This document shows, piece by piece, positions 36,401 to 39,400 of a stretch of 64,000 nt of DNA. The stretch is taken from NCBI GenBank assembly GCA_965227295.1, contig OZ245742.1:4512001-4576000 (forward strand). Reading direction: 5' to 3'. The first letter of the stretch is position 1; each line of letters begins with the position of its first letter. This stretch comes from Leptonemataceae bacterium (lineage in GTDB: Bacteria; Spirochaetota; Leptospiria; Leptospirales; Leptonemataceae). Made by a program: the position numbers.

Positions 36401-39400
36401 CTCTCGCTTTTCAGGCGAGCGCTCATGACCACACCTGCTCCCCGACGTTCGTCTTGTTCTTCTTAAAGTCACTTTCGCTCATATTTACTCCTTAGTGCGA
36501 AATGTGGGTCCGGTGGGATTCGAACCCACGGCCATCCGATTAAAAGTCGGATGCTCTACCCCCGAGCTCCGGACCCGCTATTCTCTAAATGTCTTCTTGT
36601 CATCTTCGCTCTTCATGGCGTATCTCCTGTTGCTTATGATGTGCACCGCAAGAGACTCGAACTCTTCCCTGCTGCATGGCACACAGCTATGCTTGCCACT
36701 AACACCAGCGATGCGTTTAAACGAAAAAACCCTCCAGGGAGTCGGCCGGGGAGGGTTCTTCATGAATGCGTTTGCAGATTCTTCTCAGCAACGCATGCGC
36801 AGAACTCCTCCGGCGATCCGGCCGTCCTTATGGCCCGCATCGATCCGCATCCCGATAAATCGGGCGGTTCTCACAACCGTTGCTGTTACTGTTAAGCTCA
36901 TGATAGAATACTCAGACGAATCCCTTGTTAAATTTCTTATAAAAATATCTTTGCCGACGCAGGGAATCGAAACCTGATTACCGCAGTGAAAGTGCGAGGT
37001 CCTTGCCTTTAGACGACGCCGGCGATTTGAGTTGAAACGTAGTTAGGTCCACGTTCCCGTTCTCGCGGCATCGCTCCAGCTGACACGTATGTACGTCCTG
37101 CGCGGTTCATTATACTATGAGACATGGGTGGGATTCGAACCCACGTAAACGGCTTTGCAGACCGCCCGCTGGCCTCTCGCGCACCATGTCGGGTTTACTC
37201 TGGCTTGCGGCGGTCGGTAACATCGTTCTCTGTCTTCCATATCTCCCTCATAACACTTGAAAAATAAGCAAAATGCCCATAAACGAAAAAAGGCGAGCCG
37301 TTGATCCGGGCTCGCCTTTCGCATCCAGCAGGTTACACTGAATCTAAGACGAGCGCATGACTCCCTGAAACACATCACGCTCACAACCCGCATGAATCAT
37401 GCCGGCCTTCGCGAGGTCTCGTTCCGTTCTATGTTGGCGCTTCGGCGACATTCCGTTTCCTGAATACTTACTTGGTATTCGACGTCAACAACTTCATAAA
37501 GATTTAAATATTTTTTTCATGGAACTCAATGTTCCGGGAGATGGATTCGAACCATCAACCCCCGACTTCAAAGGCCGGTGTTCTACCCGTTGAACTACCC
37601 CGGAATGAGTTGCACCGGAGGCAGGACTCGAACCTGCATAGAACGCATTAACATTGCGTCGCCTTACCATTAGGCTACTCCGGTATTCTGGCAGAGGGAA
37701 CAGGATTCGAACCTGTGAACATCGGATTTGGAGTCCGACAGCTTGGACCGCTCGACTCATCCCTCTATGTCGGCGTGGTGGGACTTGAACCCACGACCCC
37801 CGGTTCCCGAAACCGGTGCTCTACACCCTGAGCTATACGCCGGATAATAAAAAACCCCCTCAAGCTTCCGCCGGAGGGGGTTCTCGCGCAAACGCGCTGT
37901 TGCTCAGAGCACTACACGACCACCTCCAGGCAGATGCCGGGATTCTGTTGGGGCCAGTTGCTCTGTGGGAAAAACATGCTCATCACGTTTACCTGAAGTT
38001 AAGAGACGACGGTTTTCGAGAAATCCTTAACGAAAATATATTTTTTGGAACGAAAGCTTCGCTTTGCCTCGTCTCATCTACCGTATCATGAACGGTATGT
38101 TACTATCATCGCTGTATCTTCTCAGCTCCGGCGGCATGCGGGAGGCGGCGATGTAGTACGCGCAGACAGTTTTCTGTCTTCGAGAAGCCCCTCCCGGTGA
38201 ACCCGCGAGGGGCTTTTTGTTTTTAAACGCGCTGCTTTCCTCCTGCCGGTCTGTAAAGCCGGGGTCGTTAAACGAGGAGGTCGGGAGACGAGAGGTTCAA
38301 ATCCTCGGCAGCGCATACTGGATAGATGCCCGAGTGGTAAGGGACCCGTTTCGAAAACGGAGGTCGGCGGTTCGTCGCGTGGGTTCGATTCCTACTCTAT
38401 CCGCATTACGGAGGGATGACCGAGTGGTAAGGTATCCGGTTGGAAGCCGGTGGTCATCGATGAGATGCGAAGGTTCGATTCCTTCTCCCTCCGAGAAATG
38501 GAACAGTGGCCGAGAGGTAAGGCAGCGGTCCGCTAAACCGTGGTCGTCGTAACAGACGCGGAGGTTCGATTCCTCCCTGTTCCGCAGCGAGCGATAGCCC
38601 AATCAGGCAGAGGCAGTCGACTTAAAATCGGCAGAGTGCGGGTTCGATTCCCGCTCGCTCAAAACGCATCCGTAGCCCAACGGTAGAGGCACCAGGTCGA
38701 GAGCCTGGTCAGTGCAGGTTCGAATCCGGCCGGATGCACACGGGGACGTAGCCCAACGGCAGAGGCAGCACGCTCAGAACGTGTCCAGTGTGAGTTCGAA
38801 TCTCGCCGCCCCCATAGAGTCTCCACTGAAGAGATTTGCGACCTCGTGCATCGACATTTACTAGAGTAACATTTCGTGATGTTAGCATGTCTCCGGGCTT
38901 TTGTCAGCAAAAAATTAACTTTCCTTGAGTTTAAACTTGCAGTATGCCGCCGTGTGTTTAGCCTTCCCCCGGAGGAATCTATCACATGGAAACAATTCAG
39001 AAAATCATCGTCAGTCACGAAGGCATGGAAGCGCTCAAGCAGTGCGAGTCCATCCGCGTGGAGCACGAAGAATACCCGCTGCTCGTCATCGAGTTTCTGG
39101 GAGAGGGTCCAACCGCTCGCCCCGCCCTGGGCGTTTCGCAGTTCATCAAGCAAGCAAACGGCCGCTGGCTGTGCGCTCGCGAAATGCAGTTCGAAATCAC
39201 GGCGGACAATGAGTGGTTTCCGTTTCTGCTCGCCAGTGAAACTACCGGTGAATTCAAAGAGGTCTACACCCCGGTGAAGGTACCGCAGCCGTCCCGGCTG
39301 AATTCCCTCTTAAAAGTAAATCGAGAAGTGTTTCTCGAACTTCAACAGGTCGCTTGCGAGTGGGACCAGGAACTCCGCCGCGCGTGTTACCTGGGAGCGC

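Follow-up and report, generated by a model that had tools for sequence, protein, structure and literature searches.

Candidate leader-peptide attenuators in front of the sub-operons of a mobile spare-tRNA array in a Leptonemataceae bacterium

Introduction

How might the transcription of a spare set of tRNA genes, carried on a mobile element, be matched to the needs of translation? A comparison is provided by Anabaena sp. PCC 7120, where a supernumerary, horizontally acquired L-array (the trn operon) is normally silent and is induced by impaired translation, and where the idea of housekeeping versus inducible tRNA subsets has been put forward (PMC8421152). Control of the Anabaena array was ascribed to direct repeats overlapping the promoter, together with a hypothetical repressor; in that article, the regulation of individual bacterial tRNA genes is described as largely unknown, and the words ‘attenuat-’, ‘leader’ and ‘terminator’ are absent (PMC8421152).

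The locus considered here lies in a 64-kb window (the whole stretch of DNA analysed, to which all coordinates refer) of the genome of a Leptonemataceae bacterium, G000. A first-pass annotation of this DNA proposed that a tRNA array is divided into four sub-operons, each preceded by a short leader ORF and an intrinsic terminator, and that ribosomes stalling on the codons of the tRNAs encoded downstream switch on each block by attenuation. Classical attenuators of this general type comprise trpL, hisL, leuL, thrL, ilvL and pheL of E. coli and Salmonella, as well as pheM, which precedes pheST. To our knowledge, the genes regulated by the described members are without exception amino-acid biosynthesis or aminoacyl-tRNA synthetase genes. 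The principle of classical leader-peptide transcription attenuation has been set out previously (PMC1183508).

Results

A redundant tRNA array on an integrated element

Array 1 contains 26 tRNA genes and one tRNA-like gene within 3.3 kb, arranged as follows.

35528-38814: tRNA array 1, split into four sub-operons, each with a candidate leader/terminator gate
38320..38814, plus strand: sub-operon A, tRNA-Ser (cga, gga, gct) and tRNA-Leu (taa, gag, cag)
38229..38315, plus strand: non-canonical tRNA-Tyr(GUA)-like gene with acceptor stem, anticodon loop CUGUAAA and T arm
37531..37842, minus strand: sub-operon B, tRNA-Pro (cgg), Trp (cca), Asn (gtt) and Gln (ttg)
36952..37190, minus strand: sub-operon C, tRNA-Cys (gca) and tRNA-Glu (ttc)
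35528..36714, minus strand: sub-operon D, 14 tRNAs (Gly, Lys, Phe, Gly, Thr, Met, Val, Ala, Arg, Arg, Asp, Ile, Arg, His)

This is a long tRNA array (L-array, or tRNA array unit), defined by at least 20 tRNA genes at a density of at least 2 per kb that are supernumerary and horizontally acquired. The spare genes reside on a mobile element that has integrated, and are flanked by an integrase and inverted repeats; they are redundant, given the complete chromosomal tRNA set elsewhere in the genome, and share only 57-74% identity with the chromosomal isoacceptors. The tRNA-Leu genes of sub-operon A are short (73-75 nt). The tRNA-Tyr(GUA)-like gene, which has no D hairpin, was detected neither by ARAGORN nor by Rfam; 8 of its 26 predicted pairs are preserved via double changes among the four sequences compared. 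The presence of Tyr in the isotype set of unit A depends on this putative, unconventional gene. Additional ATG starts preceded by an SD lie 3' of the terminators and between the tRNAs and run into tRNA genes; near tRNA-Cys, the frame of one SD-preceded mini-ORF continues through the tRNA gene.

As previously annotated, all four units recur in array 2 (43959..47530), an inverted copy at 94-99% identity, with leaders at 44516-44584 (A, minus strand), 44686-44754 (B, plus), 45375-45482 (C, plus) and 45977-46093 (D, plus). Many tRNAs of array 2 are broken up by inserts, which match no known intron family in Rfam.

Leader ORFs and terminators

The four short ORFs and four terminators of the first-pass annotation were all recovered, and each terminator folds as a hairpin followed by a T run.

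38088..38156, plus strand: leader A ORF, 22 codons, MNGMLLSSLYLLSSGGMREAAM
37912..37983, minus strand: leader B ORF, MSMFFPQSNWPQQNPGICLEVVV, with the run PQSNWPQQNP
37344..37451, minus strand: leader C ORF, 35 codons
36785..36901, minus strand: leader D ORF, 38 codons
38183..38225, plus strand: intrinsic terminator A, stem 38187-38213, T run from 38214, dG -18.3 kcal/mol (-25.9 extended)
37849..37880, minus strand: intrinsic terminator B, stem 37855-37880, dG -18.7 kcal/mol, T6
37286..37316, minus strand: intrinsic terminator C, stem 37292-37316, dG -16.0 kcal/mol, T6, no CCUCC arm
36724..36755, minus strand: intrinsic terminator D, stem 36730-36755, dG -11.3 kcal/mol, T6

Array terminators were identified by direct folding (a hairpin, then a T run), as a simple consensus terminator scan detected 0 of the 4 in array 1 because their stems hold internal mismatches. 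Among 18 units from four genomes, 17 have such a structure, with a dG of -11 to -26 kcal/mol and a T run, positioned after the leader and ahead of the downstream genes, which is where an attenuator carries its terminator; the C230 unit of G001 combines a mirrored leader with no terminator recognisable by folding. The distance from stop codon to stem is 30, 31, 32 and 29 nt in units A to D. A gap of 27-33 nt, initially reported for seven of seven units, extends to 15 of 17 units in the four genomes and breaks down in the other two (23 and 39 nt).

Leader A has the previously noted run of ten Leu/Ser/Tyr codons, uninterrupted and with no two alike. A GTG stands one codon 5' of the leader B start, and the array 1 and array 2 copies of leader B differ by one 6-nt indel that keeps the frame. 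In leader C, Cys and Glu codons lie side by side 11-12 codons ahead of the stop, and its tail resembles the 3' arm of terminator C, a sequence that differs in G020. In leader D, 33 of the 37 residues after the start fall within the 11 downstream isotypes. No SD was found before most leaders, leader A included, as had been pointed out; ORFs downstream in the same region have strong SDs. Sigma-70-like -35/-10 elements are visible 5' of the G019 and G020 units, and a T(T/C)CGTC box on the upstream side, common to 11 of 24 leaders, is the sole shared promoter-region feature seen. Rare codons are used in the leaders, which may merely mirror the lower G+C of the element.

Leader composition mirrors the downstream isotypes

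In order to quantify the correspondence between leaders and tRNA blocks, the best in-set segment within 520 nt, in three frames, was compared with 5000 random genome windows. Leaders A (P=0.0014), B (P=0.002) and D (P=0.032) consist mostly of the amino acids of their downstream tRNAs, as the first-pass annotation had claimed, with P values larger than its own because the random-window null is stricter; leader C is not enriched (P=0.33, with 0.12 and 0.51 in relatives), in keeping with the exception made for it there. When array 1 is combined with the units of G001, P falls below 0.05 in 8 of 10 units and below 0.01 in 6, and in 9 of the 10 rows the unit's own tRNA set ranks first; the C230 unit is individually not significant. 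None of 200,000 random pairings of these ten leaders and blocks reached the true sum of 21.7 (null 4.8 +/- 2.4), so the true pairing, earlier ranked best, remains so, and the mirror is far beyond chance. Leaders enriched in product-related codons, a hallmark of attenuators, are found overall, though not in leader C taken by itself.

As a control, 34 non-array tRNA loci of G000 were scored, with 0 at P<0.01 and 3 at P<0.05. The statement that no such units precede non-array tRNAs therefore stands as regards enrichment; it fails as regards architecture in one case: ~330 nt upstream of an additional tRNA-Arg(tct), at 285.7 kb of the genome, lie a leader and terminator of the same type, the leader not being enriched in Arg.

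The match does not extend to individual codons. Leaders hold 109 readable codons, not above synonymous resampling (null 111.3 +/- 3.7, P=0.77), and sample 51 of 54 anticodons against a null of 49.1 (P=0.21, same resampling); the Pro codons of leader B are CCA and CCC, whereas the tRNA-Pro of sub-operon B is CGG. Leader and tRNA set correspond at the amino-acid (isotype) level, not the codon/anticodon level, and the original wording, stalling on ‘their own codons’, was too specific.

Leaders differ with block content in relatives

Homologous units were found in only three other genomes among 155 of the order and 189 of the class examined (4 of 190 in the class, this genome counted), consistent with the few related carriers already noted. 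Being homologous, the units of G000, G019 and G020 do not count as independent of each other. G001 represents a second genus, in which the tRNA blocks are composed differently and the leaders altered to match: SSSSSS precedes four tRNA-Ser genes, ERDWREQRDER a Trp/Glu/Asp/Arg block, the run AGFAGAAF..KG..GKGF a Phe/Gly/Ala/Lys block, an L/CC-rich leader five Leu genes plus Cys, and a Y/Q/N leader an Asn-Gln-Tyr-like block. Ten further tRNA loci of G001, taken after the hypothesis was formed, yielded a matching leader in four of five dense clusters (no clear leader was found in the fifth, C741) and in none of five ordinary loci. Between G019 and G020, leader D differs by 14 replacements, of which 13 leave the G019 residue within the set; these replacements suggest that selection acts on amino-acid class rather than on peptide sequence.

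Val-run leaders followed by a terminator, in the same layout, precede ilvB in G000, G022 and G023. DNA patterns of the terminators retrieved 32 loci from genome_contigs, 18 from metagenome_contigs, and 0 and 1 from viral_contigs; a tRNA array was present only on the G001 and G019 contigs and on none of the others. A search with the flanking DUF6908 protein recovered no relatives in genome_contigs or viral_contigs.

Pairing between leader tail and terminator

The leader ends in a tail of ~20 nt, in which GGAGG is usually present, and this tail can pair with the terminator 5' arm, usually a CCUCC sequence, forming a duplex of -11 to -22 kcal/mol located -33 to +1 relative to the stop, in agreement with the antiterminator pairing previously placed near the leader end. 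For leader A the strand concerned is:

38138..38150, plus strand: leader A tail, putative antiterminator, GCGGGAGGCGGCG, complementary to the terminator A 5' arm

The leader A duplex has -21.7 kcal/mol, with 9 of 500 shuffles equally good. Pairing potential exists in all 17 units; the duplex beats at least 478 of 500 dinucleotide shuffles in 12 and is no better than shuffles in five. The pairing tail lies within the footprint of a ribosome terminating at the leader stop. Computed on transcripts ending before the terminator 3' arm, sequestration of the 5' arm is 0.79 with the ribosome on the regulatory codons versus 0.51 with the ribosome at the stop, and is higher in 16 of 17 units; its sum exceeds that for shuffled tails (12.83 versus 10.30 +/- 0.43), matched by none of 40 shuffles. 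In equilibrium folding, the probability of the terminator falls on the regulatory codons and rises again near the stop for G000 A/B/D, G020 C/D and G019 C/D, and the terminator is retained at all ribosome positions in 5 of 17 units (G020 A/B, G019 A, G001 181a and 517).

Discussion

Probable ribosome-dependent attenuation of tRNA blocks

These units probably attenuate transcription in a ribosome-dependent manner, as leaders of the trp/his type do, but act on tRNA genes in place of genes for amino-acid biosynthesis. The features seen directly in the DNA (the ORFs and the terminators with their spacing, the mirrored composition that co-varies with block content in G001, and the pairing potential), along with the ilvB leaders, lend support to the mechanism originally proposed, and all tests run at the level of sequence fit ribosome-mediated attenuation of the tRNA sub-operons. 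Each sub-operon transcript would run through the leader ORF, followed ~30 nt past its stop codon by the intrinsic terminator. A ribosome reading the leader without delay would cover the tail strand at the stop, allowing the terminator to form, such that no tRNA block is made. A ribosome stalled 8-12 codons before the stop, on the run of codons for downstream isotypes, would leave the tail strand free to capture the terminator 5' arm ahead of synthesis of the 3' arm, and RNA polymerase would enter the tRNA genes. A shortage of charged tRNA among the isotypes of a block would thus call for synthesis of that block, whether the shortage stems from tRNA damage, depletion or poor charging. From this arrangement we infer translation of the leaders, an alternative fold in vivo, the sign of the regulation and its physiological trigger; as the tail would be covered by the terminating and not by the stalled ribosome, the geometry is that of a positive response to stalling.

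Alternative explanations

The alternative that survives best, albeit an unlikely one, is that the units sense free 30S subunits, either alone or on top of codon sensing, a GGAGG motif, an ATG or GTG and a stop together forming a stand-alone start-stop binding site. Plentiful free subunits would block the antiterminator and cause termination, and when ribosomes are tied up the tail would pair and tRNAs would be made. Such a sensor would account for the GGAGG-type motif found 8-17 nt ahead of the stop in almost every unit, even in unit C, whose terminator has no CCUCC arm, and for the lack of this motif in the ilvB leaders; for the arrangement SD-5 nt-ATG-TAG/TAA in leader A of three genomes and in G001 181a, and the GTG-TAG/TAA that ends leader B in G000 and G019; and for the leaders themselves having no SD and the 5' arm being sequestered already in many naked-RNA folds. 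It offers no reason, however, for leaders to follow the downstream tRNA set in their composition, and the start-stop is not conserved (GTA in G020 B, no start in 775, 769, 517 and G020 C), with both the frame of the motif and its distance varying from unit to unit.

Marginally less probable is that translated, codon-matched leaders act by another route, either with the opposite sign (uncoupling leading to Rho-dependent or intrinsic termination) or through precursor processing or stability. The starts between tRNAs that read into tRNA genes hint at an interplay of translation and processing, and the terminator is often retained in equilibrium folds; against this, the competing tail sits where a terminating ribosome would cover it, the geometry of a positive response, and there would be little point in shutting down spare tRNAs at a time of need.

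Ribosome-independent sensing, in which the anticodons of (uncharged) tRNAs are bound directly by a codon run displayed as a T-box-like specifier, would likewise produce a codon-to-tRNA correspondence. T-boxes bind tRNA directly, with no need for a ribosome, and control synthetase or amino-acid genes. The units proposed here would resemble them in sensing the supply of specific tRNAs and in choosing between terminator and antiterminator; in contrast to T-boxes, they have no match to the T-box covariance model or to a Trp, His, Leu, Thr or similar leader family in Rfam (E<=1 for 34000-49000 of the window, E<=0.01 for the loci of relatives). The runs, moreover, always lie inside an ATG-to-stop frame that is maintained through indels and replacements, and the match holds at the amino-acid level across synonymous codons, which is not expected of a codon-anticodon duplex; direct binding is thus very improbable. 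Least credible of all is a chance juxtaposition of unrelated small ORFs and ordinary terminators between tRNA blocks, a view favoured by the non-significance of leader C and the C230 unit and by the small number of independent lineages, but contradicted by the permutation, the G001 prediction, the negative control and the constant stop-to-stem spacing.

Comparison with known systems

Ribosome-dependent attenuation would place these units close to classical attenuators, with which they share a short ORF with regulatory codons, a terminator soon after its stop and a putative competing strand at the leader 3' end, placed where the terminating ribosome would mask it. Leaders for several amino acids also occur in the classical thr and ilv attenuators, and the lineage that carries the array has the classical-type Val-run leaders before ilvB. 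Unlike in classical attenuators, the genes under candidate control here are tRNAs (in relatives also EF-Tu paralogs and an RNA ligase), the 20 amino acids of one array are shared out among four leaders, one of which may sense up to 11 isotypes, the tail motif GGAGG is conserved, and neither a 1:2 ‘pause/anti-antiterminator’ hairpin nor an SD is obvious.

Antibiotic-sensing leaders, such as those of the erm genes, respond to drug-bound ribosomes via specific peptides. The B. subtilis bmrB-bmrCD system is likewise an antibiotic-sensing leader attenuator (PMC4191407), in which, as proposed here, stalling on a leader ORF lifts a downstream block, a possible parallel to the ‘generalist’ leaders before EF-Tu and RNA ligase; in contrast to bmrB and erm, the leader sequences described here drift, with only the amino-acid class kept. 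Array 1 is, like the L-array of Anabaena, supernumerary and acquired, and differs from it in that its candidate control consists of leader ORFs and terminators, isotype-specific for each sub-operon (PMC8421152). A literature search found no publication describing leader-peptide/terminator gating of tRNA sub-operons, and attenuators gating tRNA genes rather than biosynthetic or synthetase genes would be new.

Implications and a possible regulon

If true, this mechanism would tie tRNA supply to decoding speed through a feedback that is simple, evolvable and isotype-specific, and would account for the activation of silent spare arrays carried by mobile elements. Because the amino acids are divided among four leaders, and because leaders are rewritten upon block reshuffling, the model can be tested directly: limitation of a single amino acid, or cleavage of a single tRNA, should open just one block. 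At ~150 nt, the cassette is compact and might also be put to use as a programmable sensor of codon-specific translation stress.

In relatives, EF-Tu paralogs and a T4-type RNA ligase stand behind the same cassette, a link that suggests a wider tRNA-damage response. No recognisable kinase/phosphatase partner or tRNA-related operon was found downstream of the G001 RNA ligase or the G000 EF-Tu paralog; the ESM Atlas match of the EF-Tu paralog reads ‘EF-Tu’, without taxon or subfamily. A joint reading of these data, offered tentatively and with more doubt than confidence, is that the mobile element carries a self-contained translation-rescue regulon, in which modular stall sensors (leader ORF, GGAGG tail and terminator), recodable by evolution to any amino-acid subset, would switch on matching, structurally unusual spare tRNA blocks, and ‘generalist’ cassettes would do the same for an EF-Tu paralog and a T4-type tRNA-repair ligase. 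Such a regulon might permit survival of attacks on the tRNA pool by anticodon nucleases, by tRNA-targeting toxins or in the course of phage defence and counter-defence, and would represent the first isotype-resolved feedback on tRNA gene transcription. A ~93-95% relative of the array is present in three of four sequencing-run contig sets, where it probably represents DNA.

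Genomic setting of the tRNA arrays

ARAGORN predicts 42 tRNA genes in the window, 26 of them in array 1, where minus- and plus-strand groups diverge from a gap near position 38000. Array 1 is bracketed by the two copies, identical over 1516 nt, of an inverted repeat that contains DUF6908 genes. The principal features, in window positions, are:

27313-28965 (-): large serine integrase, beside tRNA-Ser(cga)
27409-27495: tRNA-Ser(cga)
29324-32998 (+): Lamassu-type defence system (LmuA, 2e-19; LmuB, 3e-53)
33999-35514 and 38838-40353: inverted repeat
35528-38814 (both strands, 3.3 kb): array 1
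35528-37842 (-): minus-strand group, 20 tRNAs
38320-38814 (+): plus-strand group, 6 tRNAs
40317 to ~41300: 13-nt unit repeated ~78 times
41357-43304: group II intron with reverse transcriptase, between the arrays
43959-47530: array 2, an inverted copy of array 1 (94-99% identity), many tRNAs interrupted

Of the 86 tRNA genes in the genome, the 44 that are not in the arrays make up a complete set, and array tRNAs share just 57-74% identity with the isoacceptors of that set. Around the arrays stand a serine integrase adjoining tRNA-Ser, a group II intron, a Lamassu defence system and a fragment of a transposase. The arrays are thus spare tRNA genes carried by a mobile element that has integrated here, with the tRNA-Ser(cga)/integrase/Lamassu region probably being its integration site.

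Leaders and terminators

The first-pass annotation had divided array 1 into four units (A-D), each comprising a short leader ORF, an intrinsic terminator and a downstream tRNA block. All four ORFs were found as described, including the run of ten consecutive, different Leu/Ser/Tyr codons in leader A, and all four terminators fold as a strong hairpin followed by a T run (dG -11.3 to -25.9 kcal/mol); a consensus terminator scan picked up none of them. The distance from stop codon to terminator stem is 29-32 nt in these four units; the constant gap that had been claimed extends, at 27-33 nt, to 15 of 17 units from four genomes, the remaining two falling outside this range.

Leaders of array 1 and the tRNAs encoded downstream
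Leader A: LLSSLYLLSS; Tyr-like, three Ser, three Leu
Leader B: PQSNWPQQNP; Pro, Trp, Asn, Gln
Leader C: a single adjacent Cys-Glu pair; Cys, Glu
Leader D: 33 of 37 residues in set (amino acids of the block's tRNAs); 11 isotypes

Many leaders begin with ATGAA(C/T/A/G). A T(T/C)CGTC box lies 10-55 nt 5' of the start codon in 11 of 24 leaders (from the source genome, G000, and its relatives G019, G020 and G001), those of EF-Tu paralogs included, often with an A/T-rich tract ~20 nt further upstream; this box may serve as a promoter or operator element for a shared regulon.

Correspondence between leaders and tRNA blocks

The proposal that each leader mirrors the isotypes downstream was evaluated by scoring the best in-set segment within 520 nt upstream of a block, in three frames, against a null of 5000 windows drawn at random from the genome in question. 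It holds for leaders A (P=0.0014), B (P=0.002) and D (P=0.032), and leader C shows no enrichment (P=0.33). Among 34 tRNA loci outside the arrays, none reached P<0.01 and three reached P<0.05, in keeping with the claim that such units are confined to the arrays, save for one same-type unit, not Arg-rich, near a tRNA-Arg(tct) gene.

Searched at the DNA level, the order (156 genomes) and class (190 genomes) yielded homologues of the leader regions in just three further genomes: two of the same genus (G019, G020) and one of another (G001). Leaders in G019 and G020 have drifted in sequence while retaining their amino-acid class: leader A reads LLSSLSLY(G/S)SS, and of the 14 residues by which leader D differs between the two genomes, 13 of those in G019 are still in set. 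Blocks in G001 differ in composition, and their leaders differ to match; for this genome every tRNA was listed and ten more loci were examined (those with contig names, and the five ordinary ones, below).

Leaders and downstream tRNAs in G001
YQNNQYQN; Asn, Gln, Tyr-like genes
GKHTRTMRTRKHTGGVRRVHG; Gly, Thr, Val, Arg, Lys, Arg, His
C775, SSSSSS; four tRNA-Ser
C769, ERDWREQRDER; Trp, Glu, Asp, Arg
C517, A/G/F/K-rich; Phe, Gly, Ala, Lys
C230, L-rich with CC; five Leu, one Cys
C741, no clear leader; Ile, Arg, Lys, Met, Met
Five ordinary loci, no leader feature; various tRNAs

When leaders were matched to blocks across ten units (array 1 and G001), the leader's own set ranked first in nine of ten rows, the exception being the G001 Ser unit, whose own set came second to the Leu/Ser/Tyr superset. 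The true diagonal summed to 21.7, against 4.8 +/- 2.4 for random pairings, none of 200,000 of which reached it.

Under simple wobble rules, the tRNAs of a leader's own block could read 146 of the 195 in-set codons. Neither readable codons (P=0.77) nor anticodons sampled (P=0.21) exceed expectation from redrawn synonymous codons, so the correspondence lies at the level of the amino acid, and the suggestion that ribosomes stall on a block's "own codons" stands in that form only. Leader codons are rarer than expected (0 of 4000 resamplings as extreme), which may merely reflect the lower G+C of the element.

Geometry of the putative switch

Nearly all leaders contain a GGAGG-type motif 8-17 nt 5' of the stop codon, and its varying reading frame marks it as an RNA feature. 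The 5' arm of most terminators contains CCUCC, and the leader's final 33 nt (its tail) can form a duplex with this arm of -11 to -22 kcal/mol, between -33 and +1 of the stop. Dinucleotide shuffles were as good in at most 22 of 500 cases for 12 of 17 units, and in 29-90 of 500 for the other five. Unit C departs from this: its terminator has no CCUCC, and the final bases of the leader mimic the terminator's 3' arm, in G000 with a different sequence than in G020.

When transcripts were folded without the 3' arm, mean pairing of the 5' arm was 0.79 with a ribosome footprint on the regulatory codons versus 0.51 with it at the stop, and was higher in the former state in 16 of 17 units. Summed sequestration of the 5' arm was 12.83 for real tails versus 10.30 +/- 0.43 for shuffled ones (0 of 40 shuffles reach it). 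In equilibrium folds, seven units show the probability of the terminator dropping while the ribosome is on the regulatory codons and rising again across the final ~10 codons; three units do so partly, and five not at all. The regulatory runs end 8-12 codons ahead of the stop, which is where a stalled ribosome would be expected to sit if it has to keep clear of the tail strand; trpL has the same run-to-stop geometry.

Interpretation

We consider trp-style ribosome-mediated attenuation, as first proposed, the best reading and a likely one: each spare tRNA block would be transcribed when ribosomes slow on codons of its own isotypes. It is supported at the sequence level by a mirror stronger than any of the random pairings, by the rewritten leaders of G001 and by the geometry of the putative switch. 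Translation of the leaders, formation of the alternative fold in vivo, the direction of control and what would naturally trigger it are inferences. The main rival takes the GGAGG motif, plus a start-stop site, as a sensor of free ribosomes, either alone or added to attenuation. Other routes, such as Rho or processing, are less likely, as are direct sensing of tRNA by the RNA and, given the pairing result, chance.

Full-text literature searches (leader peptide/attenuation, tRNA arrays/operons, stalling) returned no account of tRNA genes being controlled by leader-peptide attenuation. Closest is a paper on an Anabaena tRNA array induced by translational stress, which ascribes control to repeats at the promoter and a hypothetical repressor (PMC8421152). 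The predicted arrangement would be a variant of known leader-peptide regulation, with tRNA genes as its target.

A wider cassette family

Searching by pattern, and with a covariance model based on 17 units, turned up further instances:

G000, C1:2590167-2591548 (-) (locus L154): EF-Tu paralog, 62% identical to the canonical copy, behind the same leader/GGAGG tail/terminator cassette
G001, C711 (L125): EF-Tu paralog behind the same tail-spacer-terminator cassette
G017 (a third genus), C721 (L098): EF-Tu paralog behind the same tail-spacer-terminator cassette
G001, C14 (L096 394-1592) (-): T4-type RNA ligase 1 homologue (PF09511, E=1e-21) behind the same cassette
G000, C1:285687-286300 (L100) (-): extra tRNA-Arg(tct), same-type leader and terminator ~330 nt upstream
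G000, C1:~2606100-2606345 (L153) (+): Val-run leader and terminator before an ilvB-like acetolactate synthase gene
G022 (L134) and G023 (L139): Val-run leader and terminator before an ilvB-like gene

The EF-Tu-paralog leaders are mutually unrelated (F/I/G-rich, an S/T run, Tyr-rich). A role of the RNA ligase in tRNA repair is a guess; the ORF next to it has no Pfam match. The tRNA-Arg(tct) leader has 33 codons for 15 different amino acids, and the 300 nt between its terminator and the tRNA contain repeated hairpins. The Val-run leaders, picked up by the covariance model, are of the classical type (e.g. VVVYVVNVMMVVVVVV) without a GGAGG tail, and indicate that this lineage uses leader-peptide attenuation.

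Unusual tRNAs, inserts and small ORFs

None of the array tRNAs encodes CCA. The three tRNA-Leu genes of array 1 (38588-38814 (+)) are 73-75 nt long without a long variable arm, versus 82-85 nt for chromosomal tRNA-Leu. The Tyr-like gene of unit A (38229-38315 (+)), called by neither ARAGORN nor Rfam, is tRNA-Tyr(GUA)-like and has an acceptor stem, a CUGUAAA anticodon loop and a T arm, with compensatory changes in 8 of 26 pairs (four sequences). It lacks a D hairpin, the D-region strand pairing instead with the variable region, and is conserved (L032 ~6874-6963; L034 1300-1387(-) and 1606-1702(-)); its copy in array 2 carries a ~60-nt insert directly after the anticodon loop.

Many array 2 tRNAs have the T loop (GGTT^CGAATCC) split by a family of structured inserts (~55-110 nt), without Rfam matches:

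44926-45034, T-loop insert
45659-45767, T-loop insert
46578-46686, T-loop insert
46860-46968, T-loop insert
47064-47172, T-loop insert

At this same position the G019 array (L033) carries hairpin inserts of a different kind, and contigs of a relative have 51-64 additional letters at similar places. These inserts may be a small mobile element targeting the T loop, or they may reflect decay of the array. A tRNA-like gene between tRNA-Gly and tRNA-Thr contains a ~200-270-nt structured insert in G020 (L032 4489-4755) and G019 (L033 ~7240-7560), matching neither group I introns nor any other Rfam family.

Strong Shine-Dalgarno (SD)+ATG starts lie downstream of terminators and between tRNAs (36616-36578(-), 36482-36423(-), from 37240(-) and from ~37107(-)). 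One SD-preceded ORF of 12 codons (MKSEDDKKTFRE) stops 2 nt short of tRNA-Lys, and others run into or through tRNA-Phe, tRNA-Cys and tRNA-Glu. They may add a second level of control for each tRNA, or processing may be affected by the loading of ribosomes there; their N-termini (MK(S/N)E.., MSESDF.., MNR..SAGAMPRERE) are kept in G019 and G020.
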